Shown here piece after piece: positions 1-11,987 of a DNA stretch of 11,987 nt (the first letter of the stretch is position 1; the number at the start of each line of letters is the position of its first letter). The stretch comes from a virus (taxonomy: Duplodnaviria > Heunggongvirae > Uroviricota > Caudoviricetes), in IMG/VR virus record IMGVR_UViG_2778261502_000005, positions 1-11,987 of that record. One strand, 5' to 3'. The position numbers and the translations under genes were made by a program. The notes under the pieces are model-generated. The model was not told the DNA's origin, ran no database searches, and worked only from the letters and a program-made list of their open reading frames with translations.

Positions 1-516
1 ATGAAATTTAAAAAATGTCTTCTGCCTGTAGCAATGTTAGCGTCATTCACTCTGGCAGGATGCCAGTCAAATGCTGACGATCATGCCGCCGATGTTTATC
101 AAACCGATCAACTGAATACCAAACAAGAAACTAAAACCGTTAATATTATTTCCATTCTTCCCGCAAAAGTTGCCGTAGACAACTCCCAAAATAAACGGAA
201 CGCACAAGCCTTCGGCGCGCTTATTGGCGCAGTCGCTGGCGGTGTTATCGGCCACAACGTCGGTTCTGGCAGCAATTCCGGAACGACGGCAGGGGCAGTT
301 GGCGGCGGAGCTGTAGGCGCGGCAGCGGGTTCTATGGTGAATGATAAAACCTTAGTGGAAGGTGTTTCTTTAACGTATAAGGAAGGCACCAAAGTGTATA
401 CCTCCACCCAGGTGGGTAAAGAGTGCCAGTTTACGACAGGTTTAGCCGTTGTTATTACCACGACGTATAACGAAACGCGTATTCAGCCAAATACCAAATG
501 TCCTGAAAAGAGCTAA
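1..516 (+). CDS. Outer-membrane lipoprotein with a glycine-zipper region (SlyB/PCP-like), 171 aa
   Basis: ATG at window position 1. N-terminal signal peptide with lipobox L-A-G-C (MLASFTLAGCQS). Central Gly/Ala-rich run (GALIGAVAGGVIGHNVGSGSNSGTTAGAVGGGAVGAAAG) typical of glycine-zipper lipoproteins. Family assignment is from memory of the motif pattern, not alignment. Confidence 0.7.
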   Translation: MKFKKCLLPVAMLASFTLAGCQSNADDHAADVYQTDQLNTKQETKTVNIISILPAKVAVDNSQNKRNAQAFGALIGAVAGGVIGHNVGSGSNSGTTAGAVGGGAVGAAAGSMVNDKTLVEGVSLTYKEGTKVYTSTQVGKECQFTTGLAVVITTTYNETRIQPNTKCPEKS

Positions 517-531
517 TAATCAGGAGGAGTC

Positions 532-1071
532 ATGAAGAAAGTTTTTCTTTGCGCCATCTTGGCCTCCTTAAGCTATCCGGCTATCGCCTCATCATTGCAG
601 GATCAACTCTCGGCTGTCGCAGAAGCGGAACAGCAAGGTAAAAATGAAGAGCAAAAGCAGCATGATGAATGGGTCGCGGAGCGCAACAGGGAAATCCAGC
701 AAGAGAAGCAACGTCGCGCAAATGCCCAGGCCGCCGCTAACAAAAGAGCGGCAACGGCAGCAGCAAATAAGAAAGCTCGTCAGGATAAACTGGACGCCGA
801 AGCCTCTGCGGACAAAAAACGCGATCAAAGTTATGAAGATGAGCTACGCAGCTTAGAGATTCAGAAACAAAAACTGGCGCTGGCAAAAGAAGAAGCCCGC
901 GTTAAGCGAGAAAACGAATTTATCGATCAGGAACTGAAGCACAAAGCTGCGCAAACCGATGTGGTGCAATCTGAAGCTGACGCCAACAGAAATATGACTG
1001 AAGGCGGTCGCGATCTGATGAAAAGCGTGGGCAAAGCAGAAGAGAACAAATCGGACAGCTGGTTTAATTAA
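532..1071 (+). CDS. Secreted, highly charged coiled-coil-type protein of unknown function, 179 aa
   Basis: Strong SD AGGAGG 6-7 nt upstream of the ATG. Cleavable signal peptide ending AIA|SS. Lys/Glu/Gln/Ala-rich low-complexity body. Lies 15 bp after the lipoprotein, so probably co-transcribed. Confidence 0.7.
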   Translation: MKKVFLCAILASLSYPAIASSLQDQLSAVAEAEQQGKNEEQKQHDEWVAERNREIQQEKQRRANAQAAANKRAATAAANKKARQDKLDAEASADKKRDQSYEDELRSLEIQKQKLALAKEEARVKRENEFIDQELKHKAAQTDVVQSEADANRNMTEGGRDLMKSVGKAEENKSDSWFN

Positions 1072-1110
1072 TCGATGTTAGTAACTTCAAGCCTATGATT
1101 CTTGAAGATA

Positions 1111-1141
1111 AAAAACCCTCTGTAGTAACAGAGGGTTTTGT
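1111..1141. terminator. Bidirectional rho-independent terminator between the convergent secreted-protein gene and the Rz gene
   Basis: Hairpin CCCTCTG (1116-1122), loop TAGTAA, CAGAGGG (1129-1135). Flanked by AAAAAA upstream and TTTTGTT downstream, so it can terminate on either strand. Confidence 0.65.
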
Positions 1142-1290
1142 TCATTCATAGTGCAGGGATTAAAATCATTCCCACTCAATTATTTACGACAACCATAACC
1201 AATTGAGTGATAACATTTTTCCAAAACTTCATTTTTCTCATACCGTTTTATATACCGTCACCGGAAATCAGTACCATGAAAAATGCCATG

Positions 1291-1773
1291 CTATCTGGTC
1301 AGGGTGTCGTACTGTTTTTCACAGACTCTTCCGGCTTCGGCTGCCCGGTCAGCATACTCTGCCAGTTGTCTGTTTCTCTCGAGAGATTTGCTGAGCACGT
1401 CGGCAAGCAAAACTCCGGTGTCTGCGGCTGACGTCCCAGCGCCGACAATGGCGTTATACTGCCTGAGTTGCTCACGGATGGCAACGAGCTGTTGCTGCAA
1501 CCGGCCAGCGCGAGCGGCAGCATCAAGAGCATCATTGCGCGCCTGGTCGATCCTCTGTTGCGCTTTACGTTCATTGATCGCTTTCTCCTGTTCGTAGTGC
1601 TGACGAACTTTCTCATCTTCGGCTTTGCGCTCTTCCTTCGCCTGTGCATACCCGGCGTCGTACTGTCGGCTACCATGCACATTCCAGGCAACAACTCCTG
1701 ATAGAGTCAAAACAGCAAGCATCGCCACGATAACCAACTGTTTCCAGTATGCTTTTACGAATGCCAAGATCAT
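1291..1773 (-). CDS. Rz-like inner-membrane spanin (i-spanin), 160 aa
   Basis: N-terminal transmembrane anchor (LVIVAMLAVLTLSGVVAW) followed by a long charged coiled-coil region. Start overlaps the endolysin stop as ATGA (1770-1773). Last gene of the lysis cassette. Confidence 0.7.
   Translation of the reverse strand: MILAFVKAYWKQLVIVAMLAVLTLSGVVAWNVHGSRQYDAGYAQAKEERKAEDEKVRQHYEQEKAINERKAQQRIDQARNDALDAAARAGRLQQQLVAIREQLRQYNAIVGAGTSAADTGVLLADVLSKSLERNRQLAEYADRAAEAGRVCEKQYDTLTR
1299..1535 (-). CDS. Candidate Rz1-like outer-membrane lipoprotein spanin (o-spanin) embedded in the +1 frame of Rz, 78 aa
   Basis: Internal ATG-ATG at 1535/1532 in the alternate frame of Rz. Short signal peptide with lipobox LALAGC, then a Ser/Pro-containing mature part. 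Weak SD (AGG) upstream. An embedded o-spanin is the standard Rz/Rz1 arrangement. Confidence 0.4.
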   Translation of the reverse strand: MMLLMLPLALAGCSNSSLPSVSNSGSITPLSALGRQPQTPEFCLPTCSANLSRETDNWQSMLTGQPKPEESVKNSTTP

Positions 1774-2399
1774 ATCGCCAGCACCTTACTGGCAGTGATG
1801 TATCGCTCACGCCTGTCGTCGATGCCGTTCCGGCCACCATTGATAATCAGAGTTACACGTGCAATATCGCCGGTATACTTCATGCAGCCTTTGCTGGAGA
1901 AAAACCACGCCGCGCTACGAGCCGCATATTCGTCCTGAGCCAGCAGTTCAGGACTCTCCAGCAGGTCAACCTTCAGACCGTTTCCACAGTCACGATAGTT
2001 ATTCAAACCGGTAATCTGGATAAGTCCGCGCCCACGGTAATTCCAGCCATCGCCGGGAGCATTGTTCCCCATGCGTTTGCTGTACACCAGATTTGCGATC
2101 GCGCGCTGGCGCTCAAGTGACAATGGTGGTTCGCCTGCGCGTCGCCCCAATACGTTGGCCTGTCCCTGAGTGAGACGCCCAGCCCGAACGAAGTTAACCA
2201 GTCCGCTGACGCTGTAGTTGAAATTCTCCTGCAACCGAGTGAAGCCCACAGACTCATGCCCGACCTGAGCAATAAACATTGCCTGATCTTCGGTTTTGCT
2301 GATACCAAACTCTTTCATCGCAGAAATTATATGCGAGAACCAGCGGTCGGCCAGCGACTCGCTGATACCAGCAGCTCGCTGAAATTGTTTAATCTCCAT
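1770..2399 (-). CDS. Endolysin, glycoside hydrolase family 19 (chitinase-like lysozyme) type, 209 aa
   Basis: Contains NYRGRGLIQITGLNNY, which matches the GH19 catalytic-region signature as I recall it, and a downstream AAWFF motif. No signal peptide. Sits between the holin-like genes and Rz with overlapping start and stop codons. Confidence 0.8.
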   Translation of the reverse strand: MEIKQFQRAAGISESLADRWFSHIISAMKEFGISKTEDQAMFIAQVGHESVGFTRLQENFNYSVSGLVNFVRAGRLTQGQANVLGRRAGEPPLSLERQRAIANLVYSKRMGNNAPGDGWNYRGRGLIQITGLNNYRDCGNGLKVDLLESPELLAQDEYAARSAAWFFSSKGCMKYTGDIARVTLIINGGRNGIDDRRERYITASKVLAI

Positions 2400-2697
2400 G
2401 TTTAGACCTCGCTAATTTGAAAATCTGAACGACGTTACCGCGTGTTTTAATAACCGCAGCAAGCATGACTACGTTGATAATGACCTCAGATAAATCCACT
2501 GCCATTGGCATGCTGAACCAGATTGCATAGGCGACACGAACCGGAATACTAGCCGCAGCAACAATCAGGAAATAAGCAAGCCAGCCACCCCATCGTCGGT
2601 GTTGAGATCCATTGCGCCGGAAAGTAACAACACGAATAGCTATGCCAGTACAAATAACTGCATTGGTGATAAGCAAAAAAATCTCATGCGTTACCAT
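2389..2697 (-). CDS. Holin-like small membrane protein (second of two), 102 aa
   Basis: Three predicted hydrophobic helices and a charged C-terminal tail (KTRGNVVQIFKLARSKHGD). SD GGGAG about 8 nt upstream of the ATG. Overlaps the upstream holin by 14 nt and the endolysin by 11 nt. Confidence 0.55.
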   Translation of the reverse strand: MVTHEIFLLITNAVICTGIAIRVVTFRRNGSQHRRWGGWLAYFLIVAAASIPVRVAYAIWFSMPMAVDLSEVIINVVMLAAVIKTRGNVVQIFKLARSKHGD

Positions 2698-3088
2698 CGT
2701 CTTTTCTCCCAGGAATCAACTCGCGTGGATTATCAGAACGATGATAGAGCCATATACCAATACGAACGGCGACAATTGCCGACACGAACGCACCTGTAGA
2801 AAATGCAATCCCTTTCTCGAATGAGTCCTGCGTGATGGTAGGGATCAGGCTGGCTACACCGATAAGGATGGATGCTGTAGGTTTGTAAAAGAGAAGGCCG
2901 CAGAGGAAGCTGAGCATCGACAGAAGAACACGACGACGGATTGGGTATTCTACTGCAGAGGTAACAAAAATTACCGCACCAGCCAAAGATCCCAAAGCGA
3001 CCTCTGGAGGAACTCCTGCTATCACCGACACTAAAGAACCAACGCTAAGCCACTGATTTAAAGATTCATTGGTTAACTGTATTGACAT
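2684..3088 (-). CDS. Holin-like membrane protein (first gene of the lysis cassette), about 134 aa
   Basis: Three to four hydrophobic segments. Start placed at the ATG at 3088, which has a GGTGG SD-like sequence 5 nt upstream. In-frame alternative starts exist at ATG 3100 and GTG 3118 (M-V-V-F-M spacing), so a dual-start holin/antiholin pair is possible but not demonstrated. Confidence 0.55.
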   Translation of the reverse strand: MSIQLTNESLNQWLSVGSLVSVIAGVPPEVALGSLAGAVIFVTSAVEYPIRRRVLLSMLSFLCGLLFYKPTASILIGVASLIPTITQDSFEKGIAFSTGAFVSAIVAVRIGIWLYHRSDNPRELIPGRKDDGNA

Positions 3089-3384
3089 AAAAACCACCAT
3101 TTTTGAGCATAATGACACTCTTAGCTAGTGAGTTCATTATACACAGCGAACCTTATATGGATTAGTGGTGGTTTATTTTAACGCTTAAAAAGCATACGCT
3201 GCTAATAGCACAACGCCTTGCAATCAGATGCAAACCTTTGTCCACTACTAATCTCAATGAAATAGATCAGCAAAGCATTTGACTCTCCCCGTTGGATGAT
3301 GTGTGAAGTGCTGACTAGAATGCTGCAAATATGATATGATGTTTGGCATCCATTGACTTTAATTTGTTATATAGATAAATACAT

Positions 3385-4386
3385 ATGAAAGAAATAAAAT
3401 CACTAACAGGTGTTAGAGGAATAGCTGCAATTTACGTAGTTCTTTATCACTTTACAAACGCAAAAATACCTTTTCTATGGAACGGATATCTAGCAGTAGA
3501 TCTTTTTTTCGTATTAAGCGGATTTATAATGTGTATGGTATACTCTAAAAATTTCACACAAGAAATATCTGTTAGTGAATTTGGAAAATTTATTTGGCAT
3601 AGATTTTCAAGAATATATCCATTATATTTATTTGTTTTATTATTAACAATAGTTATTCAAGTAAATCAATCATCGCCACCATCAACTCAAAATCTCATAA
3701 TAAATTTTATGATGTGGCAAAATTTATTTAATAATGGAATGGTTGGTGCATCATGGTCTGTTAGCGTTGAATTAATTGCGTATTTAATATTTCCGCCTCT
3801 AATATTCTTATTAACCGATAAGAAATGGTTATGTTTCATAATAATTTACACATCAATGTCAATGTTGTTTTATATTACAACAATTGACAACCCTGGTAGT
3901 AGCGGGCCACTTGATATATATAGCGGAATCCCTTCAATAATGAGAGGTGTTTGTGGTTTCACTATAGGTTGTTGTTGCTATGTTTTATTTGATAAATACA
4001 AACACACATTTAATGTTATTGCATATACTCAAGATATTTTGGCGGCTTTAGTAATAGCGTGTTTACTAACAAAAGGAATGGATGTTGTTTTTGTTATTTT
4101 GACCGGATTATATATATCATCGCTTTATTATAGCACTGGAATAACAGGATGGTTACTATCAACAAAACCTATTCATTATTTGGGGGAGTTGTCTTTTTCA
4201 ATTTACCTTACGCACCTGATGATACAAAGGCATTTTATATTTGAAGTGAATGCAATAACTGAATGGTTAAATGTTAGTTATATAAATGATGTGTTTGTTA
4301 TGGTTATATCTACACTGATGTTTTCTATATTAACATTTCATTTAGTAGAAAAGCCAAGCAGAAATATTCTAAGAAAACTAAAATAA
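3385..4386 (+). CDS. Acyltransferase-3 family integral-membrane O-acyltransferase (Oac-like O-antigen acetylase candidate), 333 aa
   Basis: N-terminal RGIAAIYVVLYHF and DLFFVLSGF motifs characteristic of acyltransferase-3 (R-x10-H and V-x2-FF-x-S-G). About ten hydrophobic helices. Very AT-rich (about 31% GC in the first 100 nt). No SD. Convergent with the tailspike gene. Confidence 0.8.
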   Translation: MKEIKSLTGVRGIAAIYVVLYHFTNAKIPFLWNGYLAVDLFFVLSGFIMCMVYSKNFTQEISVSEFGKFIWHRFSRIYPLYLFVLLLTIVIQVNQSSPPSTQNLIINFMMWQNLFNNGMVGASWSVSVELIAYLIFPPLIFLLTDKKWLCFIIIYTSMSMLFYITTIDNPGSSGPLDIYSGIPSIMRGVCGFTIGCCCYVLFDKYKHTFNVIAYTQDILAALVIACLLTKGMDVVFVILTGLYISSLYYSTGITGWLLSTKPIHYLGELSFSIYLTHLMIQRHFIFEVNAITEWLNVSYINDVFVMVISTLMFSILTFHLVEKPSRNILRKLK

Positions 4387-4393
4387 ACAAAAA

Positions 4394-4428
4394 ATGCCGA
4401 CGGATACTTAAACAATCTATCGGCATTA
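4394..4428. terminator. Bidirectional hairpin terminator between the convergent acyltransferase and tailspike genes
   Basis: AATGCCGA (4394-4401) pairs with TCGGCATT (4421-4428), with an inner GATA/TATC extension. A-run on the left and a T-rich tract on the right. Confidence 0.5.
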
Positions 4429-4434
4429 AATTTA

Positions 4435-6864
4435 TTAAGGATTACTTACCAACCCCTTCCATCCTCCACTTCCTGCGCTTGTGCATTGATAGAAGTATCC
4501 TGTGTTTTTGTCAACATATAATCCTCCTGGCTTACCATTAATAACTCCGTAAGGAGTTCCTGAACCGCTTATCAATGAAATACCATGTATAAAAGAAACA
4601 TTCTGACTATATGTTCCTGTCCCTGGAGCTCTGGCCATATCATTAATAGCACAAAGCCATGATCCAGCTGTTGATATGTTTGATATATTATCATCATCAT
4701 TTGGGACAATGGCTATCATTGGTATTGTTGCGTTTTTACCATAACCTCTAATATTACTTATTCCTCTTTGAACTCTTGAGTCTGTCAAATCTCTAATCAA
4801 TGGAACACTTACGCTATCTTCACAGATAAAGTTATTTATCGTGTAGTCATCACAGCTTGAATCAGTTTCTATATGAACCAATCCCTCGGCATCAGTATCG
4901 GAAGCTCCTGAGTATCCACCATCCCAAAAAATGCCATCTATGTTTATATATCTTGCTCCGCCGCTAATATATATATTACCAGCACCTCCGATAACCCTTA
5001 ATTCATTTATATAAATACCGTAGAACCCTAAAATTTCAACAACCCTTGCATGGTTTGATGTGTATTTTGAGTTGTTTGCGTTTTCAACCGTACAACTTGC
5101 TATAACGGAATACCTGGCATTTTGATGCCGCCCCGATGGTATTGATGCTGTATTAATGTGCTCAATTTGGAATCCATGAACACAATTTTTTGCATAACAT
5201 CTATAAAATTTAACACATCTTGCGGGCATTGTTGTTGAGTGGCCCTTCTGCTGAAATCCAGTCATTACCCCATCCGCATAACAATCCATCACGGTAACAT
5301 TATAACTTCCTTCATCAATTTCAATACCATGCTGATTCCCTGTCCATACCATATCAGGGTCATCGTTCCATACTCGGCAGCGGTTAATTACAATATCACT
5401 GCTATTATGCGTTGTAATGAGATCGTCAAGTTGACTGTTTTGAACAAAAGTGTCTTCAACAACAATGTCATAGCTACCACCAACTGCATTATTATTAATA
5501 TTCCCATCATCGAAATAATACCCAGCACAAATATCTATACCATGCTGCAAACCACGCTTACAGTAAACGTTTTTGATGGAACTGTGGCTGACAGTAGAAA
5601 ATAAAATAGTAGTCCCCTGTGTGGCATCCATCCATGTTTCTGACGGATTTCTTGCTCGATTGTTAGCATCTACACATAAGTCTTCTATGTGGATAGAAGT
5701 ATCGTAGTTTGTCCTGAATACCCTGTATTCATAAAGCTCGTTCTGAATACAGTTTTCAATTATCGGCATTGTTGGTAGTGCTAGAATAACGGTCTTAAAT
5801 TTCCCCACCCCACGCAATCTAACGTAAGATGGTACTTTCAGTGCAGAGTTAATCCCGTAAGTACCTTCAGAAAGAATAAGCTCTTTCACCGTTGCCATTT
5901 TTGCCGCTTGCAGTGCTTTGTTCAATTTATCATGACAATCCGTTACTCCATCAGGAACAATTCCGTAATAATCAGCATACACTTCATTGCAGATTCTTTT
6001 CCAACGCTTTCCACCAGGCGTCACAATTATCATTCCATCATCATCAATTGTTGTTAAATCAGTGCTATCATAATAAAAATACCCACCTCCAATACCAGAG
6101 CCTAAAGTATGCTCTAATACATATATTCTTTGCTGTAAATTTGTTGGTTCTATATTGCGTAAATTAGAAATGGAAGCACAATTGCCAATAAGTTTTAAGC
6201 CATCACTTGCTGCTAGCTGAATCATTACATCGGATGCAGATCCAGACTGTGGAAGGACCATAATAGGATTACCATTGTCATCCATCGCTACCACTTTGTT
6301 TTTACGATTCTCAGCATCAGGCAAACTTGGTATTGGCTCAGGCGTTCTAAGAGTACGACCTAGATTTGTATTAGCAAGTTTATCGACATAATTTTTAGTT
6401 GCCGCATCCTGTGGGCGCACAGGGTCTCGCAGATTTCTGATGTAGTTGTTAATAGCGTCATAATAATTCGACACAAAAGATGGCTTACGAAGAGCAAGTG
6501 AAAACCAACTTCTTACCTGCTGGATCAGCATCGTTAGCTTATCAAACGCGTCTTCGTGCACCTCAGCAAAAAACTTACCCTGGTTTCTAAGATCTGTTTC
6601 CTGAGTAACCGATAGTTCTCGCAATATGGAAATCTGATAACCATTAGCCAGTGCCTTCGACAGAATTACATTGCCACCGTTATACCCTCCCGCACCAGTG
6701 ACTGTGTAATCAGTATCAAGATCCAGCACAGTGATATTCTCGTCAAGGTCAATCACCTGCACTACTAAATCAGATTTATTGAAAACCCTAAAGGTATAAG
6801 GGAATGATGTCGTAACGCCGTTACCGGTGTATTCGTTGTGGTTAACTTCGGTTGAGACCGTCAT
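4435..6864 (-). CDS. Tailspike/tail fibre with T7-tail-fibre-like N-terminal anchor domain and C-terminal beta-helix (pectate-lyase-like) domain; probable polysaccharide depolymerase, 809 aa
   Basis: N-terminus (YTGNGVTTSFPYTF...DLVVQV...DYTVT...IRNLRDPVRPQDAATKNYVDKL) follows the conserved pattern of the T7 gp17 N-terminal domain. The remainder is rich in Gly/Asn/Ser/Thr/Ile as expected for a right-handed beta-helix. SD GGAG 7 nt upstream of the ATG. GC drops after roughly the first 170 codons. Confidence 0.8.
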   Translation of the reverse strand: MTVSTEVNHNEYTGNGVTTSFPYTFRVFNKSDLVVQVIDLDENITVLDLDTDYTVTGAGGYNGGNVILSKALANGYQISILRELSVTQETDLRNQGKFFAEVHEDAFDKLTMLIQQVRSWFSLALRKPSFVSNYYDAINNYIRNLRDPVRPQDAATKNYVDKLANTNLGRTLRTPEPIPSLPDAENRKNKVVAMDDNGNPIMVLPQSGSASDVMIQLAASDGLKLIGNCASISNLRNIEPTNLQQRIYVLEHTLGSGIGGGYFYYDSTDLTTIDDDGMIIVTPGGKRWKRICNEVYADYYGIVPDGVTDCHDKLNKALQAAKMATVKELILSEGTYGINSALKVPSYVRLRGVGKFKTVILALPTMPIIENCIQNELYEYRVFRTNYDTSIHIEDLCVDANNRARNPSETWMDATQGTTILFSTVSHSSIKNVYCKRGLQHGIDICAGYYFDDGNINNNAVGGSYDIVVEDTFVQNSQLDDLITTHNSSDIVINRCRVWNDDPDMVWTGNQHGIEIDEGSYNVTVMDCYADGVMTGFQQKGHSTTMPARCVKFYRCYAKNCVHGFQIEHINTASIPSGRHQNARYSVIASCTVENANNSKYTSNHARVVEILGFYGIYINELRVIGGAGNIYISGGARYINIDGIFWDGGYSGASDTDAEGLVHIETDSSCDDYTINNFICEDSVSVPLIRDLTDSRVQRGISNIRGYGKNATIPMIAIVPNDDDNISNISTAGSWLCAINDMARAPGTGTYSQNVSFIHGISLISGSGTPYGVINGKPGGLYVDKNTGYFYQCTSAGSGGWKGLVSNP

Positions 6865-6968
6865 GTTAAATCTCCAGATAGTCGCAGCACCCGTTGCGCC
6901 GCATATCCGATTATTCTATTACCCGAAAAACCATATATGGATAGATAGACCATGAATACAAACAGATA

Positions 6969-6983
6969 TTACCTTTCAGGTGA
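6969..6983. promoter_or_regulatory. Operator-like palindrome TTACC-N5-GGTGA upstream of the tailspike gene
   Basis: TTACCtttcaGGTGA, a 9/10 match to the TTACC-N5-GGTAA motif found around the repressor gene. Lies about 105 bp upstream of the tailspike ATG, next to a TTGCAA hexamer on the minus strand. Confidence 0.4.
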
Positions 6984-7012
6984 TTTGCAAAACGTGCTGG
7001 ATAGCAAACAAA

Positions 7013-7708
7013 TTATTTGATACTGTATAAATATACAGTTATTGCATGGAGAAGATAAGATGCAGCAGTATCACTATCCACTGGAAGACGGATTTTCCGA
7101 AGAAAGTCATCTGATGGCTGCCATTGTTCATGCATGACAAATTTGCCTAATTGCCCTGGCCCACCAGGAGGAACAAAGTTATTCATCACGGCGTTGTTTG
7201 CGCCGGGGTCATGATGCACAGAATCCCCGTTTTTTGTCCTGCTCTCCCTCTCTTGGTTAAATGACTGGTTATATGACTGGTTCTGGATCCCGTTTTTGGG
7301 ATCATTCAACATCCCGTTTTTGGGATCATTCAACATCCCGTTTTTGGGTATATTCCCGTTTTCGGGTATATTCCCGTTTTCGGGTATATTCCCGTTTTCG
7401 GGTTCATTGCCCCCCTCCCGGTTGCCTTTAATGTTCCCGTTTTTGGTTATATTAAGAGAGAAAACCCGCACTCTTTTTGTCGCTCCCTTTCTATCTCCGG
7501 TATCTGAAATAAGCCCCATTTTCATGAGCGATATAAGCCCGGCCTGCACGGTTTTTTTATTCAGGCAAGTGTCTTTAACGAGGCGTTCTATGCTGGGGTA
7601 GCAGAGGTTATATTCATCGGCTCTGTCAGCCATCGAGAGCAGTATGAGCTTTAATGATGAGCTACCTGGATCTGTCTCCCAGGCCCAATCTGTTGCATGT
7701 CTGCTCAT
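7013..7708 (-). CDS. Phage replication initiator, O-like, with N-terminal winged-HTH domain and internal repeat region, 231 aa
   Basis: N-terminal region (LKLILLSMADRADEYNLCYPSIERLVKDTCLNKKTVQAGLISLMKMGLISD) has the pattern of phage and plasmid replication-initiator HTH domains. The central part is a tandem peptide repeat (ENGNIP x3, NDPKNGML x2) encoded by iteron-like DNA repeats. Starts 13 nt after the upstream gene. Confidence 0.75.
   Translation of the reverse strand: MSRHATDWAWETDPGSSSLKLILLSMADRADEYNLCYPSIERLVKDTCLNKKTVQAGLISLMKMGLISDTGDRKGATKRVRVFSLNITKNGNIKGNREGGNEPENGNIPENGNIPENGNIPKNGMLNDPKNGMLNDPKNGIQNQSYNQSFNQERESRTKNGDSVHHDPGANNAVMNNFVPPGGPGQLGKFVMHEQWQPSDDFLRKIRLPVDSDTAASYLLHAITVYLYSIK
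7021..7040. promoter_or_regulatory. Candidate LexA (SOS) box
   Basis: TACTGTATAAATATACAGTT matches the consensus TACTGTATATATATACAGTA at 18 of 20 positions, with perfect CTGT-N8-ACAG arms and an all-A/T spacer. It lies within the last 9 codons of the O-like gene, about 157 bp upstream of the tailspike ATG. Confidence 0.55.
7289..7453. repeat. Iteron-like direct repeats (candidate replication origin) inside the O-like gene
   Basis: Seven tandem units sharing the core CCCGTTTT(T/C)GG(G/T): 24-bp units at 7289 and 7313; 18-bp units at 7337, 7355, 7373, 7391 and 7436. The core CCCGAAAACGGG is itself palindromic. A further 12-bp tandem (ATGACTGGTT-AT/CT) lies at 7261-7284. Confidence 0.65.
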
Positions 7709-7723
7709 GATTAATCTCCGCTA

Positions 7724-7924
7724 TCAGCTTGAGTGTTGTGGGGAGGAATTAATCATGATCTGCTTAATCTCTGCCCTGATGCGACGGTTTGATTCCATGG
7801 TGCACTCAACACAGTGTCCGTTGTAAACCCAGCGTTCACTGTCATGTCCGTGCTTACATGGTTTTCCGGTGTAGTAGCGTTTAAGTCCGCGCTTTGCGGC
7901 ATCAATACGTGTAATGATTTCCAT
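7724..7924 (-). CDS. Small Cys/His-rich (putative zinc-binding) protein in the cII-equivalent position, 66 aa
   Basis: Start placed at the internal ATG at 7924 (MEIITRI...), with an AGGG SD-like sequence upstream; the longer ORF beginning at 7987 adds a hydrophobic leader. Motif C-x-H-x-H-x13-H-C-x2-C. Function not recognisable from sequence. Confidence 0.45.
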   Translation of the reverse strand: MEIITRIDAAKRGLKRYYTGKPCKHGHDSERWVYNGHCVECTMESNRRIRAEIKQIMINSSPQHSS

Positions 7925-8004
7925 GGTAAGCCCTGTTATTAGTATTGGGATTACGGTTATTTTGTGCTGACACAAAAAAAAGATCAACCATATTTGGTTT
8001 TTTA

Positions 8005-8019
8005 TTACCTTTGAGGTAC
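8005..8019. promoter_or_regulatory. Operator-like palindrome TTACC-N5-GGTAC between the cro-side terminator and the Cys/His gene
   Basis: TTACCtttgaGGTAC, a 9/10 match to the shared motif. Confidence 0.4.
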
Positions 8020-8029
8020 GGATAGATAT

Positions 8030-8053
8030 GAAAAGACCGCCGGATGGCGGTCT
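8030..8053 (-). terminator. tR1-like rho-independent terminator downstream of the Cro-like gene
   Basis: GC-rich 8-bp stem AGACCGCC (8034-8041), loop GGAT, GGCGGTCT (8046-8053). On the minus strand it is followed by TTTTCAT. Sits between the Cro-like stop (8075) and the next gene. Confidence 0.5.
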
Positions 8054-8074
8054 ACAGAGGGTTGTGGCTGGATA

Positions 8075-8305
8075 TCATGAGTAGAAGAAGTATGCCAGTT
8101 CTGCTTTTGAGCGCAGCCATTGTCTTGTTTTACAGGCTTTAAAAAGCCCATTCATCAATACTTTACCTGGCATTTTGCGCTTACCTGTTAAGTGAGTCTG
8201 GATATAGTGACTCGTCGTTCCGGCTTCCTGTGCGAAGGCTTCACGCTCATCCGGAGTAAGTGCAAGCCAGTGCTTTTTGAAATCGAAATGTCCGTTATCG
8301 CTCAT
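8075..8305 (-). CDS. Cro-like small HTH regulator (DicC/YdaS-like), 76 aa
   Basis: Small basic protein divergently transcribed from the repressor gene. Putative HTH around EAFAQEAGTTSHYIQTHLTG. The position matches lambda cro. Family call is tentative. Confidence 0.6.
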   Translation of the reverse strand: MSDNGHFDFKKHWLALTPDEREAFAQEAGTTSHYIQTHLTGKRKMPGKVLMNGLFKACKTRQWLRSKAELAYFFYS

Positions 8306-8341
8306 AGCTATTGCCTGATATTTATTTCAGATAATAAATAT

Positions 8342-8404
8342 TCACCTATAAGGTAACAAAAATCAAGGATAGTTACCCATGAGGTGCATTTACCTGTTGG
8401 GTAA
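8342..8404. promoter_or_regulatory. OR-like operator cluster of three TTACC-N5-GGTAA-type palindromes in the divergent Cro-like/repressor promoter region
   Basis: Sites at 8342-8356 (TCACCtataaGGTAA), 8373-8387 (TTACCcatgaGGTGC) and 8390-8404 (TTACCtgttgGGTAA, perfect). An AT-rich 9-6-9 palindrome ATATTTATT-N6-AATAAATAT lies at 8318-8341. Confidence 0.6.
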
Positions 8405-8459
8405 TATTGCTTTAAATTGAATCATCTACTGATTCATATATGAGGCGATTTTCCAGAAA

Positions 8460-9044
8460 ATGAAAAGTATCCAGGACGTCCGCAGGCAAAATCTCAACGA
8501 CTTGATCGACCGTGAATTCAATGGTGTTCAGACGCGGATGGCAGAAAAACTTGGAACTCAGGCAAATCTGGTAAACCGCTGGGCTCTTGGCAAGAAGGTT
8601 ATCGGCGACCAGGTTGCGCGAAAAATTGAAGCTGCCGCCAATAAACCCCGTAATTGGCTTGATATCGATCGCTCGCTTTCTCAGGAAGGTTTTCAGCCTG
8701 TCGGCCCGAGTGATATAGGTCAGCTGGCTGCTCACAACCTGGAACGCTGGATGAGCGAAAGCCGCGACCTTTCAACACAGGGAAAACTTCACCGCGCATC
8801 CGGCGTCGCCCAGGTGACAATCAGCCGCCTGTTAAACAATGAGGTCAGCGTTTCCATTTCCACCCTGGAGAATGTTGCATCCGCATTCGGGCGTCACGGC
8901 TATGAATTACTGATTCACCCGCACGACCCTGCGACTATCAACTATGACCGCTCGCGCTACGCATTGTTACCCGAAACAGAGAAGGCAAAGATCGAAAGTT
9001 ACATTGAATTTGTCATCAGCCAGAACGAAAAAAACAAACAATAA
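8460..9044 (+). CDS. Phage repressor with two tandem XRE-type HTH domains and no S24 peptidase domain, 194 aa
   Basis: First HTH around QTRMAEKLGTQANLVNRWALGKK, second around LHRASGVAQVTISRLLNNEV. No Ala-Gly/Ser-Lys autocleavage module is recognisable. The nearest SD-like GAGG is about 14 nt upstream of the ATG. Flanked by operator palindromes on both sides. Confidence 0.8.
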   Translation: MKSIQDVRRQNLNDLIDREFNGVQTRMAEKLGTQANLVNRWALGKKVIGDQVARKIEAAANKPRNWLDIDRSLSQEGFQPVGPSDIGQLAAHNLERWMSESRDLSTQGKLHRASGVAQVTISRLLNNEVSVSISTLENVASAFGRHGYELLIHPHDPATINYDRSRYALLPETEKAKIESYIEFVISQNEKNKQ

Positions 9045-9065
9045 AATCATATTTTTCAGTAAGTA

Positions 9066-9090
9066 AGCCGCCTTCTGGCGGCTTTTTTAT
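9066..9090 (+). terminator. Rho-independent terminator after the repressor gene
   Basis: AGCCGCC (9066-9072), loop TTCT, GGCGGCT (9077-9083), followed by TTTTTTATT. Confidence 0.75.
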
Positions 9091-9100
9091 TGCCAGATAG

Positions 9101-9123
9101 ATTACCTTACGGGTAATTTTTTT
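9101..9123 (+). terminator. Second hairpin with T-tract; also a perfect copy of the operator palindrome (OL-like distal site)
   Basis: ATTACC-ttacg-GGTAAT followed by TTTTTTT. The core TTACCttacgGGTAA lies at 9102-9116. Confidence 0.5.
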
Positions 9124-9135
9124 AACTCATATCTA

Positions 9136-9178
9136 TTGACACCAAACCAAATAAGCATAATTATTACCTCAACGGTAA
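9136..9178 (+). promoter_or_regulatory. pL-like early promoter with overlapping operator, driving the small ORF, methyltransferase and phosphatase
   Basis: Consensus -35 TTGACA (9136-9141), 17-bp spacer, -10 candidate AATTAT (9159-9164). Perfect operator TTACCtcaacGGTAA (9164-9178) overlaps the -10 and the predicted transcription start. SD GAGGT at 9185-9189. Confidence 0.55.
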
Positions 9179-9197
9179 CAGACCGAGGTAACAAGTT

Positions 9198-9347
9198 ATG
9201 CAGTGGAAAATCATCAACGGTTGGTACTGCGTTACTGCATGCGGATTCATGAGCTGGAAGTTCCGCACCTTACAGGAAGGTATTAAGTGGGCTTTCGTCA
9301 GCAAAGAAGCTCGCGATGTGGCCAACGATAACGAGATATGGGAGTAG
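9198..9347 (+). CDS. Small ORF of unknown function (first gene of the early operon), 49 aa
   Basis: ATG with SD GAGGT 8 nt upstream. Trp- and Cys-containing (MQWKIINGWYCVTACGF...). Absent from the ORF track because of its length. Coding status unverified. Confidence 0.4.
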   Translation: MQWKIINGWYCVTACGFMSWKFRTLQEGIKWAFVSKEARDVANDNEIWE

Positions 9348-9421
9348 GTTAGCAAATGAGTGAATTGTCAATCATCGAAATCACACCAGACATAGCGGCA
9401 TAGGATGTTGTGGGGTGGTTT

Positions 9422-10072
9422 ATGACTAAGAAATACACACTAATCTATGCAGATCCACCCTGGGTATACCGGGACAAAGCCGCAGATGGTAATCGCGGTG
9501 CCGGTTTTAAATATCCGGTTATGAGTGTGCTGGATATCTGCCGCCTTCCTGTGTGGGATTTGGCCGATGAAAACTGTCTGTTGGCCATGTGGTGGGTGCC
9601 AACACAACCACTCGAAGCACTAAAAGTTGTTGAAGCCTGGGGATTCCGTCTGATGACGATGAAGGGCTTCACGTGGATAAAATGTGGTAGTCGACAACCA
9701 GATAAACTGGTTATGGGTATGGGACACATGACTCGCGCCAATAGTGAAGATTGCCTGTTTGCAGTAAAGGGAAAACTACCTCCGCGCATTAATGCAGGGA
9801 TCGTTCAGTCATTTACCGCACCGCGGCTTGAGCATTCAAGAAAACCAGATGTCGTTCGTGAAAAACTTGTGCAATTGTTAGGCGATGTTTCTCGCATTGA
9901 ACTGTTCGCCCGCCAGTCGTCTCATGGCTTCGATGTTTGGGGTAATCAGTGCGAAGACCCGGCAGTGCAACTACACCCTGGATACGCGTTGGATATTGGC
10001 GGATTAACAAATGCATTCAGCAATGCTCCGGTGTCACCAATAGACAACCAGGGGCGGGAGCGTGCAGCATGA
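9422..10072 (+). CDS. MT-A70 family N6-adenine DNA methyltransferase, 216 aa
   Basis: Catalytic DPPW motif in [10 protein letters not shown]. Start placed at the ATG at 9422, with a GGGGTGG SD-like sequence upstream; the ORF track uses GTG at 9410. Stop overlaps the phosphatase start as ATGA. Confidence 0.8.
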
Positions 10073-10728
10073 ACCTATATCAACGCATCAATGGCGCTGA
10101 CTGGTGCAATATCTTCGTCGTCGGCGATCTGCATGGGTGCTACACGCTGCTGATGAACGAACTCGACAAAGTTTCATTCGACCCGGCGCGCGATTTACTT
10201 ATTTCCGTTGGTGACCTTGTTGACCGCGGCGCTGAAAACGTCGAATGCCTGGATTTGATTACTATGCCGTGGTTCCGAGCTGTTCGTGGCAACCATGAGC
10301 AGATGATGCTGGATGCACTGGTCAACGGCGGAAGTTTCGGACATTGGATGTCAAACGGCGGTGGATGGTGGCACCAACTTGATTCTGAGCAGGATGTGCA
10401 ACTCAAATACCTTCTGCCAAAGATTACCAACCTCCCGATGATTATCGAACTGGTTACCGGCAATAAGAAGGTCGTCATCTGTCACGCAGACTACCCGCAC
10501 AACGAATACGCATTCGATAAGCCAGTACCAGAAGAAATGGTGATATGGAATCGTGAACGGGTTAGCGACGCGCAGGACGGTATTGTCTCGGAGATAACCG
10601 GTGCCGATTTGTTCATCTTCGGTCATACGCCAGCACATCACCCACTGGTGTATGCAAACCAGATGTACATCGACACCGGCGCAGTGTTCTGCGGAAATCT
10701 GACGCATACCAAAGTCCAGGAAGGATAG
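10069..10728 (+). CDS. Lambda-type serine/threonine protein phosphatase (metallophosphoesterase, PrpA/PrpB-like), 219 aa
   Basis: Signature motifs GDLHG, GDLVDRG and GNHE. The ATG at 10069 overlaps the methyltransferase stop. The longer track ORF from 9949 is an out-of-context N-terminal extension. Confidence 0.85.
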
Positions 10729-10730
10729 AA

Positions 10731-11987
10731 TTATTTATTACTGTCTTCCATCCACTTCTCAAACTTCGACGGGGAGAACGGAATCAGATCCGTATGCTCC
10801 CCGTTAATCCAGGAATCAATCATATCGGCCCACTGCTGCAACATGTAGGCGCGCTGTCTGGCGTATTCCGCTTTGTTATATACGGCGCGCACACCTTTCT
10901 GCTCATGTGCCAGAGCCTTTTCAATCCAGTCTGAAGGATAACCAGCCTCATGCAACAACGTACTTGCTGTACGGCGCATATCGTGTACGGTGAAGTCCTG
11001 AATATGCTCACCATCTTCATTTATTATTTTCACCGTTCTGTCGATCAGAGAGTTCAGCGCGGCATTAGATAATGGCTTCCGGAAATTGTAACGACCAGGA
11101 ACCAGATATTCACTTCCACCAGCGCACATCTGCAACCCAACCAATATATCCTGTGCCTGTTTAGGCAGGTAAATAACGTGCGCCCGGCTTCCCTTCATGC
11201 GGTCTGAAGGAATTGTCCATGTCCATTTTTTAAAATCTATTTCATCCCACGTTGCATTGGTGAATTCGCCTTTACGAACCATAGTGATAAGCACCAGCTT
11301 TAAAGCCATTTTCATAGTGCCCATAGCACCAATGGCATCCAGCGTGCGGAAGAACAGGCCAATTTCTTCTGGTGTCAGTGTTCGCTCTCGTGGTTTAAAT
11401 ATGGCGATAGACGAAGGTTTAATGTCAGCCGCAGGATTAAACAAACCATGACCACGGTCATTGGCATGACGGTATACGCTGCTGATGATCTCCCTGGCCT
11501 GCACTGCTGTTGCCCGGCCACCGCGTTCGACAATCCGGTCACACAAATCACGAACCATCGATGTGGTAATTTCAGCCATCATTTTATTGCCAAGAACCGG
11601 AAGTATGTCACGGTCGATCACCGCCTGTTTCATTGCGCGGGTACTGTCAGCCAGGATGACGTGTTTCATATAACTGTCGGTATGTACCGCAAACGTCTCG
11701 GCACCACGAATCTTTTTGATACCGTCACGTTTAGCCGCAGCCGGTGACTGGCCTGCTTTAAGCAGCTTCTTTGCAGCAATCAGTTCTTCTCGCGCTTCTG
11801 CCAGGCTGATACCGTCACGCCCATACTGCCCGATTACCAGCGTTTCGCGGCGACCGTTGATACGGTAGTCGTAGCGAAACGAGACCGTGCCTGACGTAAG
11901 CACAGCTACATACAGCCCGTCACGATCGGAGACCTTGTACAGTTTGTCCTGCGGCTTGAGGTTTTTTAATTTTGTATCGGTAAGCAC
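10731..11987 (-). CDS. int: Tyrosine recombinase, phage integrase with N-terminal arm-binding domain, 418 aa
   Basis: N-terminus MLTDTKLKNLKP...DGLYVAV is typical of arm-type-binding integrase N-termini. C-terminal catalytic H-x-x-R (HDMRRT) and tyrosine in RAVYNKAEY. First codon is GTG at the window edge, so the true start may lie just outside. The 3' end is 2 bp from the phosphatase stop. Confidence 0.85.
   Translation of the reverse strand: MLTDTKLKNLKPQDKLYKVSDRDGLYVAVLTSGTVSFRYDYRINGRRETLVIGQYGRDGISLAEAREELIAAKKLLKAGQSPAAAKRDGIKKIRGAETFAVHTDSYMKHVILADSTRAMKQAVIDRDILPVLGNKMMAEITTSMVRDLCDRIVERGGRATAVQAREIISSVYRHANDRGHGLFNPAADIKPSSIAIFKPRERTLTPEEIGLFFRTLDAIGAMGTMKMALKLVLITMVRKGEFTNATWDEIDFKKWTWTIPSDRMKGSRAHVIYLPKQAQDILVGLQMCAGGSEYLVPGRYNFRKPLSNAALNSLIDRTVKIINEDGEHIQDFTVHDMRRTASTLLHEAGYPSDWIEKALAHEQKGVRAVYNKAEYARQRAYMLQQWADMIDSWINGEHTDLIPFSPSKFEKWMEDSNK

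Follow-up and report, generated by a model that had tools for sequence, protein, structure and literature searches.

A probable defective Uetakevirus prophage at the guaA site of an Escherichia coli strain

The window analysed here, a stretch of 11,987 nucleotides, is 100% identical over all its bases to E. coli assembly GCA_002233275.1. It very probably holds a defective prophage of the Uetakevirus (phiV10/epsilon15) type, inserted at the usual guaA attB and reduced by two deletions in one E. coli strain. Defective prophages of this sort are ordinary. The initial annotation had offered three readings (a cryptic prophage remnant, the integrase-proximal arm of a full prophage and a helper-dependent element) and favoured none. 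Only the first is supported by the data, as two deletion junctions were mapped to the base against full-length relatives. The features of the window are listed in Table 1; L003 and L017 are loci of related prophages.

Table 1. Features of the window, with supporting matches
Feature	Position	Strand	Remarks
yfgH, host gene (outer-membrane lipoprotein), outside element	1-516	+	annotated yfgH in E. coli AF56 and AST205; 100% aa identity to L003
yfgI, host gene (DUF5384), outside element	532-1071	+	
attR core, reverse complement of ATTGAGTGGGAATGATT	1164-1180	-	17-bp direct repeat with guaA 3'-end copy in L007
attP-derived arm, repeated ACGGTAT/GGTGACGGTAT motifs	1181-1290	-	97% identical to phiV10 attP left arm
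Rz-like spanin (DUF2514)	1291-1773	-	phrog_312 at 7e-59; full length, 100% identical to L003
Rz1 lipoprotein, embedded in Rz-like gene	1299-1574	-	full length, 100% identical to L003
GH19 endolysin, 209 aa	1770-2399	-	PF00182; 100% identical to L003
Holin (Phage_holin_3_7)	2389-2697	-	
Putative second holin or membrane protein (Phage_holin_8)	2684-3088	-	PF16931 at 2e-11; phrog_198 holin
Acyl_transf_3 acyltransferase, 28-31% GC	3385-4386	+	PF01757 at 2.8e-25
Tailspike, 809 aa	4435-6864	-	PF27114, PF12708
Operator-like site TTACCTTTCAGGTGA, between tailspike gene and p24 stump	6969-6983	+	conserved in phiV10
Truncated replication initiator	7013-7708	-	HTH_36 kept, DnaT domain (PF17948) lost
phiV10 p24 stump, first 13 codons	7061-7101	+	
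Deletion junction 1 (TTTTCCGAA)	7093-7101		phiV10 34032 joined to 20759; ~25.8 kb lost
Tandem iterons, candidate origin, inside initiator gene	7254-7403		Tandem Repeats Finder
phiV10 p42 homolog	7724-7924	-	phrog_1081; 100% identical to L017
Terminator-like hairpin after cro	8034-8053	-	terminator annotated at equivalent position in phiV10 record
Cro-like regulator	8075-8305	-	phrog_35; 100% identical to phiV10 p41
Right operator region, three TTACC-N5-GGTRA sites (8342, 8373, 8390)	8342-8404		
Promoter-like site in right operator region	8359-8331	-	
Repressor, two HTH motifs, no peptidase domain	8460-9044	+	HTH_3; 99.5% identical to phiV10 p40
Left operator region, two perfect sites (9102, 9164), downstream of repressor gene	9102-9178		
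Promoter-like site in left operator region	9136-9164	+	
phiV10 p39 homolog	9198-9347	+	phrog_898
Deletion junction 2	9389-9396		L017 12601-16262 (3.7 kb) gone, equal to phiV10 29053-31786 (~2.7 kb)
MT-A70 DNA methyltransferase, intact, 216 aa	9422-10072	+	
NinI-like Ser/Thr phosphatase	10069-10728	+	Metallophos; phrog_246
P4-type tyrosine integrase, intact	10731-11987	-	Arm-DNA-bind_3, Phage_int_M and Phage_integrase domains

Locus and attachment sites

The whole window had been taken as the element. Positions 1-1163, however, are host DNA (yfgH and yfgI), and homology to phiV10 starts exactly at the attR core. phiV10, epsilon15 and vB_EcoP_ZX5 have the 17-bp core ATTGAGTGGGAATGATT as their published attP/attB (PMC9782041). 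The element carries this core and is integrated at the 3' end of guaA, in the final codons of the gene. An attachment site had been expected just past the right edge and lies there in the guaA 3' end, with the attL core 191-207 bases past the window end (positions 4671-4687 of the source locus, L007) and guaA beginning 192 bases past it. The two cores are 11 kb apart in L007, and the element measures 11,031 bp from att to att. Both att sites are perfect and their arms are 97-99.5% identical to phiV10 attP. The repeated motifs at 1181-1290 may be integrase arm sites.

The flank on the guaA side in L007 is guaA/guaB/xseA, and yfgI, yfgH, yfgG, pdeF, ppx and ppk lie to the left of attR. A tRNA next to the integrase, which the initial annotation proposed to look for, was not found by a tRNA search of the window and the 22-kb source locus; the att site is in guaA. 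Rfam at the gathering threshold returned no RNA family. In silico excision produces a guaA/core/yfgI junction that is found in E. coli genomes at 486 of 486 bases (100%), and the empty guaA-yfgI site is present in 4,569 of 5,426 complete E. coli genomes.

Gene content and deletion junctions

The closest known phages are phiV10 (Uetakevirus; NC_007804), epsilon15, vB_EcoP_ZX5 and TL-2011b. The window aligns to phiV10 in five colinear blocks at 82-99% nucleotide identity, and the gene order of both arms is the same. Amino acid identity to phiV10 is 99.3% for the integrase, which is of the P4 type in phiV10 itself, 99.5% for the repressor, 100% for Cro and 97.7% for the methylase. The lysis cassette is also that of phiV10 (79-94% aa identity) and lies wholly on the minus strand, with gene overlaps of 14, 11 and 4 nt. 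In both elements an acyltransferase adjoins the tail fibre or tailspike gene. The acyltransferase at 3385-4386 occupies the position of the phiV10 moron gene oac, but the two proteins are unrelated at the blastp level (no match to Oac at 1e-5). The tailspike combines a conserved N-terminal particle-binding part with a pectate-lyase-type beta-helix; its N-terminal 326 aa share 72% identity with the phiV10 tail fibre, whereas the receptor-binding part differs. The phosphatase stands in place of the phiV10 DUF1382 gene. A PADLOC search matched only the methyltransferase (Type II MTase model) and found no defence system.

Coordinates and domain families bear out the integrase, the repressor/Cro switch with its operators, the tailspike and the lysis cassette with its overlaps, all of which had been proposed at the outset, together with the lack of capsid, portal, terminase and P genes in the window. 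Beyond that list the window contains the acyltransferase, the methyltransferase and the phosphatase. The lack of N, Q and P had been pointed out. A lambda-P-like gene is indeed expected and absent; N and Q are not expected in the genus and none is annotated in phiV10. A scan for operators found 14 hits spread over 8 distinct positions, where chance would give about 1 match. The repressors of phiV10 and ZX5 are reported to be identical in sequence, the ZX5 protein has been shown to block the lytic cycle, and this related phage uses an antirepressor (PMC9782041). Because the repressor has HTH domains only and ZX5 relies on an antirepressor, SOS-type induction through repressor self-cleavage is unlikely.

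Apart from two gaps the window is colinear with phiV10, and the junction segments overlap at 7093-7101 and at about 9389-9396. Junction 1 was mapped from overlapping blastn segments and a three-way alignment that included L003 and L017. The sizes of the deletions are measured against phiV10 (39.1 kb) and L017. Relative to phiV10 about 25.8 kb and 2.7 kb are missing; no part of the window aligns with phiV10 1-20758 or 34033-39104. The alignments show a central, illegitimate deletion at a short microhomology that fused codon ~205 of the initiator gene to the region in front of the tailspike gene, 237 bp upstream of it. The homology of all relatives splits at this junction. Lost with it were the C-terminal DnaT domain of the initiator, the lambda-P-like loader, the nin-type genes, a candidate late regulator, the terminases and all particle genes. 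A second deletion, as read from the same comparisons, removed the PerC-AlpA-RecT-nuclease block and other genes, leaving a PerC stump. The genes that phiV10 has and the remnant does not are P, the nin-type genes, the regulator p55, the terminases, portal, capsid, tail, Bro, p24, PerC, AlpA and RecET. Both junctions fall in unique, non-repeat sequence with only short microhomologies.

The initiator had been described as bearing an origin. The iterons are there (18-bp units x3.8, 24-bp x2.6 and 12-bp x2.4 in Tandem Repeats Finder). The protein is not intact: it is cut after residue ~205-208 of ~271, and its last ~25 residues are read-through into foreign sequence. The other genes are full length and 99.5-100% identical in amino acid sequence to those of full-length relatives, which indicates a recent loss. 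The intact overlaps and operators had been cited against advanced decay; the argument is valid and points to recent deletions, not to a functional element. Among the ORF families the packaging and virion module (TerS, TerL, portal, protease, major head and tail proteins) is completely absent, so the element is a defective derivative and not a functional phage. Internal deletions of a full-length phage would yield it, and genes are truncated at the junctions.

Relatives and rival explanations

The identical 809-aa tailspike occurs in nine other assemblies, within full-length prophages at the same guaA site, and the protein is recorded on 24 contigs. These nine prophages match window positions 1-7101 at 98.1-99.7% and diverge exactly at 7101. 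Over 7093-11987 the identity to full-length relatives reaches 99.9%, except for the 3.7-kb block. The left arm has its nearest match in L003-type prophages, the right arm in L017. Because no sampled full-length prophage is the best match for both, the direct parent is unsampled or recombinant. It was sought in the 5,426 complete E. coli genomes, where the tailspike/acyltransferase region is absent and neither gene is present.

Three E. coli strains, AF56, AST205 and FG31-1, carry defective Uetakevirus prophages between guaA and yfgI with the same att cores, both ends kept and the middle lost. Their breakpoints differ from those described here, the deletions are partly multiple and the tail fibre genes are different. 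FG31-1 has lost the tailspike and keeps TerS, and AST205 keeps the RecT block that is lost here. They look like independent events. In AF56 and AST205 homology to the phiV10 P gene stops at one and the same base, possibly a preferred breakpoint. In the annotation of AF56 the P reading frame continues for another 105 bp, so the common base may be a mosaic boundary and not a shared deletion.

Cryptic prophages of E. coli K-12 (DLP12, e14, Rac and Qin) retain an integrase and scattered modules after internal deletions and make no particles. Compared with these the remnant is much younger, as damage is limited to the junction gene and the att sites are both perfect. PICI, cfPICI, P4-like and PLE satellites resemble it in having about 11 kb, an integrase, a repressor and an origin-type region. 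A compact helper-dependent satellite, which would own its integrase, immunity, origin, tailspike and lysis genes and borrow capsid, packaging and replication from a related helper, is nevertheless very unlikely. The intact att cores and integrase, the iterons and initiator HTH domain, the lack of decay in retained genes and the broadly similar compact layout of AF56 and AST205 would all suit it. Against it, the architecture is a singleton and does not recur as a conserved compact element: throughout the gene index the truncated fusion initiator occurs on the source contig alone, and junction 1 is absent from all 5,426 complete E. coli genomes. The junction severs the replication gene and leaves the 13-codon p24 stump, and in other strains the homologous loci have breakpoints of their own, independent of this one, and truncated genes. 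PICI and cfPICI are recognized by an AlpA/Stl/MerR-type regulator, a primase-replicase and TerS and/or capsid morphogenesis genes, whereas holin and tail genes, which the remnant has, mark phages and not satellites (PMC10085698). Among the ORFs scanned, Pfam and PHROG showed no PICI/cfPICI marker, thus no AlpA/Stl regulator, primase-replicase, TerS or capsid-redirecting gene, and none of the P4-like markers Psu, Delta, Sid, epsilon (Ash) and alpha primase-helicase. P and any packaging-module sequence are also missing, and the AlpA homolog of the relatives falls inside deletion 2. Two recent deletions seen in one strain only do not make a satellite.

It is highly improbable that the deletions are artefacts of assembly in a strain that really has a full-length prophage. 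The source is a draft assembly, the only one with this arrangement, but the junctions are not in repeats, the contig is 135 kb long and recorded for 2 samples, and similar real remnants are found in closed genomes. The reading of the window as the integrase-proximal part of a full prophage whose structural genes lie to the left has a negligible probability. It draws on nothing but the lack of structural genes inside the window, and the L007 flanks already refute it: host genes fill 1-1163 and continue leftward from the attR core, and guaA follows on the right.

Functional outlook

In the integrated map of these prophages the guaA end holds the integrase, early-left genes, immunity and replication, the yfgI end holds the tailspike, acyltransferase and lysis genes, and the genes for packaging and particles are placed between the two. 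The defective prophage looks functionally coherent because it consists of just these two ends. From its gene content it should be incapable of autonomous replication, since the P-like loader and the initiator DnaT domain are gone, and of packaging its own DNA or building particles. Autonomous excision is probably lost as well with the AlpA-family candidate excisionase, if that role is assumed. The remnant would still make its repressor and so confer immunity to homoimmune phages, and the acyltransferase, presumably still produced, probably modifies a surface polysaccharide.

The early-right operon (cro, p42 and the truncated initiator) is on the same strand as the tailspike, with no predicted terminator between them. 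The deletion might have created a new unit in which this repressor-controlled operon reads into the tailspike and towards holin-endolysin-spanin, serving as a suicide module or tailspike donor; we regard this as unlikely. If true, the antirepressor of a related phage could switch on the tailspike and lysis genes in an abortive-infection-like suicide. Alternatively, the tailspike/acyltransferase arm could pass to an incoming phage by homologous recombination and change its host range.

Beyond correct annotation the defective prophage itself matters little. A coherent, compact set of modules can arise from prophage gene order and one central deletion, so any satellite call needs a comparison with full-length relatives and a test of whether the element recurs in other genomes. 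The uncommon pair of tailspike and acyltransferase has been kept, and remnants of this kind may plausibly serve incoming phages as reservoirs of host-range genes.

Attachment sites and host locus

The window is present at 100% identity over 11,987/11,987 bases in contig NLUV01000011.1 of the E. coli assembly GCA_002233275.1. On the right in this contig, guaA starts 192 bases past the window edge and is followed by guaB and xseA; the left flank carries yfgG, pdeF, ppx and ppk. One copy of a 17-bp direct repeat (ATTGAGTGGGAATGATT) overlaps the last guaA codons at 191-207 bases past the window, just beyond the right edge as the initial annotation had predicted for an attachment site; the second copy is at window 1164-1180. 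The same 17-bp att core is experimentally established for phiV10, the full-length Uetakevirus reference phage, and its relatives epsilon15 and vB_EcoP_ZX5 (ZX5), with the guaA 3' end as attB (PMC9782041). The inner DNA next to the two repeats is 99.5% and 97% identical to the phiV10 attP arms. No tRNA was found in the window or the source locus.

When the outer flanks are joined via a single core, the resulting 486 bases match, at 100% identity, E. coli genomes in which guaA and yfgI are direct neighbours. This empty guaA-yfgI site is carried by 4,569 of the 5,426 complete E. coli genomes. Because the join matches real empty sites, the att-to-att length of the element is exactly 11,031 bp, its host is E. 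coli, and window 1-1163 is host DNA.

Two side observations concern these sites. The identical 418-aa integrase is encoded by a prophage outside guaA, in an aroM-like ORF downstream of aroL/yaiA (locus L020, 9900-9960, CP195580.1); its junction (GTGGGAATGATT) has 12 of the 17 core bases in common and, from the sequence, looks like a secondary attachment site. The att-adjacent host genes are damaged in two other E. coli strains with short remnants at guaA-yfgI, with yfgH frameshifted in AST205 (locus L013, 2498-3017) and an internal stop in yfgI of FG31-1 (locus L014, 3032-3571).

Derivation from a phiV10-type phage

Megablast of the window against phages and E. coli genomes identified phiV10, its relatives and approximately 540 E. 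coli genomes with such prophages. The phiV10 map begins with the terminases and all virion genes (41-19485), followed by Bro and p24 on the opposite strand, the tail fibre gene (20996-23623), oac, two holins, endolysin and Rz/Rz1, and then attP and the integrase. DUF1382, methylase, PerC, AlpA, RecET and repressor genes follow on the opposite strand, and the map ends with cro, p42, a DnaT-like initiator, a lambda-P-like protein, nin-type genes and the regulator p55. When the map is opened at attP, one end carries the integrase, early-left, immunity and replication genes and the other the tailspike, acyltransferase and lysis genes, with the packaging and particle genes in the middle. Any single internal deletion retains integrase plus immunity from one end and tailspike plus lysis from the other, which already explains the functionally coherent module set without morphogenesis genes that was correctly observed in the initial annotation.

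Genes of the window (order from the ORF list and domain scans) and blastn blocks colinear with phiV10
Feature	Window position	Strand	phiV10 position	Remarks
yfgH	1-516	+		
yfgI	532-1071	+		
Rz-like spanin	1291-1773	-		Rz1 embedded at 1299-1574
GH19 endolysin	1770-2399	-		
Holin	2389-2697	-		
Second holin-like membrane protein	2684-3088	-		
Acyl_transf_3 acyltransferase	3385-4386	+		GC 28-31%
Tailspike	4435-6864	-		809 aa
Replication initiator	7013-7708	-		231 aa
phiV10 p42 homolog	7724-7924	-		Small gene of unknown function
cro-like gene	8075-8305	-		
Two-HTH repressor	8460-9044	+		
phiV10 p39 homolog	9198-9347	+		49 aa
MT-A70 methyltransferase	9422-10072	+		
NinI-like phosphatase	10069-10728	+		
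P4-type tyrosine integrase	10731-11987	-		
blastn block	1164-3160		26736-24738	
blastn block	6185-7101		21675-20759	
blastn block	7093-9344		34032-31787	
blastn block	9392-10074		29052-28370	
blastn block	10748-11987		28166-26927	

Two joints follow from the five-block layout. At joint 1 (window 7093-7101), phiV10 34032, a position within the initiator gene, meets 20759, 237 bp ahead of the start of the tail fibre gene. The loss amounts to ~25.8 kb, and blastn found no phiV10 packaging-module sequence left in the window. At joint 2 (window about 9389-9396) the missing block is 2.7 kb relative to phiV10 and 3.7 kb relative to L017, the closest integrase-side locus, and comprised PerC, an AlpA-family protein, RecT, nuclease and small genes. 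In three-way alignments each joint lies in short imperfect microhomology, TTT(T/A)CCGAA at joint 1 and GAC(T)AT(A/G)GC at joint 2.

Full-length relatives cover both sides of joint 1. An identical tailspike protein occurs on 24 contigs in the gene index; among the ten loci shown, one is the source contig and the other nine have virion genes directly upstream and the same yfgI-side junction. Over window 1-7101 the nine are 98.1-99.7% identical (8/9 at about 99.7%), and the match stops at 7101. The integrase protein is widespread in identical form. In the ten integrase loci shown, the genes after it are phosphatase, methylase, (PerC), one for an 82-aa protein located like the phiV10 AlpA-family gene, RecT, nuclease, repressor, cro, p42 and the initiator, with a 258-261-aa lambda-P homolog next in 9/10. 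The closest of these, L017, is 98.7% identical to window 7093-9396 and 99.9% identical to 9389-11987.

The tailspike relatives differ in other respects. Four of them (L004, L006, L010 and L011, about 12479-13336) have the acyltransferase called at 285 aa, not 333 aa, a shortened allele; the remnant has the long one. A Bro-N antirepressor gene lies between the virion genes and p24 in phiV10, ZX5 and L008 (7571-9235) but is absent from the closest full-length relatives (L003-L006, 9365-9805).

The window initiator keeps HTH_36 at residues 18-67 and has lost the DnaT DNA-binding domain, which spans residues 184-252 of the 271-aa L017 protein. Homology stops at ~residue 205-208, and the final ~25 residues are read-through. 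On the other strand, p24 is reduced to a 13-codon stump. All remaining phage genes are full length with no internal stops, and each protein is 99.5-100% identical to that of some full-length relative. Because the retained genes are undamaged and this similar, the deletions are recent, which is why no decay was seen in the initial annotation.

Several finer features described there are real: the lysis-gene overlaps (14, 11 and 4 bases), the operators (TTACC-N5-GGTRA, 14 matches at 8 distinct positions against a chance expectation of ~1) and the origin-type tandem 12-, 24- and 18-bp repeats in the initiator gene (7254-7403). The interval from cro to the repressor gene contains three operator sites, with two more just downstream of the repressor gene. 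At window 6969-6983, between the tailspike start and the p24 stump, is another repressor-operator-like sequence (TTACCTTTCAGGTGA), which phiV10 conserves; from this site the divergent p24/Bro (antirepressor) operon may also be under phage repressor control. The initiators of the integrase loci range from 263 to 285 aa, and that of the window exceeds the L017 one by 6 residues, equal to a single 18-bp repeat unit, which suggests that iteron copy number is polymorphic within the coding sequence.

Remnant, prophage arm or satellite

Three origins had been proposed for the window. The arm of a full prophage is refuted by the att cores at both ends and the host genes on both flanks. For a compact helper-dependent element, the markers of PICI and cfPICI are an integrase with AlpA/Stl/MerR-type regulators, primase-replicases, and TerS or capsid-redirecting genes, those of P4-like satellites are Psu, Delta, Sid, epsilon and alpha, and holins and tail genes are found consistently in phages only (PMC10085698). 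Apart from the integrase, Pfam and PHROG scans of window ORFs found none of these satellite marker genes. Unlike satellites, the window has holin and tail genes, and it retains nothing of the packaging module. Joint 1 can be traced by its 231-aa fusion initiator, for which the whole gene index records a single contig (2 samples). The joint is spanned in none of the complete E. coli genomes, where every relative's match breaks at window 7093-7101. The satellite reading is therefore unsupported.

Truncated homologous loci, which the initial annotation took to speak against a satellite, do exist. Other short elements occupy the same site in three closed genomes, each differently built. In AST205 a partial P gene is fused to a point 79 bp ahead of a tail fibre gene that differs from the window's, and the RecT block is still present. 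In AF56 the P gene is also partial, the tail fibre gene is different again, and the methylase is truncated at the N-terminal end. FG31-1 has undergone several deletions, which spared TerS and took most of the tailspike. The three elements decayed independently, and the compact form is not a family. The cryptic prophage remnant was thus the right reading: the element derives from a well-known type of temperate phage, at the known attachment site of that type, through recent deletions private to this strain.

In AF56 (locus L001, 10890-10900) and AST205 (L013, 9884-9890) homology to the phiV10 P gene ends at the same base (TATCACATACG, phiV10 about 34730-34733), although the tail-fibre sides of the two have no relation to each other. 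This base may mark a shared old deletion, a mosaic boundary or a preferred breakpoint.

Host-range module and probable present function

None of the 5,426 complete E. coli RefSeq genomes contains this tailspike receptor-binding part or acyltransferase (window 3200-6200); matches there are limited to about 220 bp at 85% in two genomes. With the tailspike protein on 24 contigs of the larger gene index, this is an uncommon host-range module. The acyltransferase occupies the position of phiV10 oac, annotated in the phiV10 record as an O-antigen acetylase blocking superinfection, and has no close homology to it. Its putative role, a likely one, is surface-polysaccharide acylation.

Replication would call for a P-type loader and a complete initiator, and excision probably depends on an AlpA-family protein; the window has none of these. 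The tailspike and lysis genes are probably silent because p55, the candidate late regulator, is deleted. The early-right operon now continues into the tailspike gene, with no terminator predicted on the minus strand from 7013 to 6864. A domain scan found no self-cleaving peptidase domain in the window repressor; the induction switch of the relatives would be an antirepressor from the p24/Bro region, a part of the phage lost from this element.

The repressor is 99.5% identical to that of phiV10. The phiV10 and ZX5 repressors are reported to be the same in sequence, and the ZX5 protein has been shown to shut off lytic genes (PMC9782041). Because a near-identical repressor is retained together with intact operators, the strain is probably immune to homoimmune phages.
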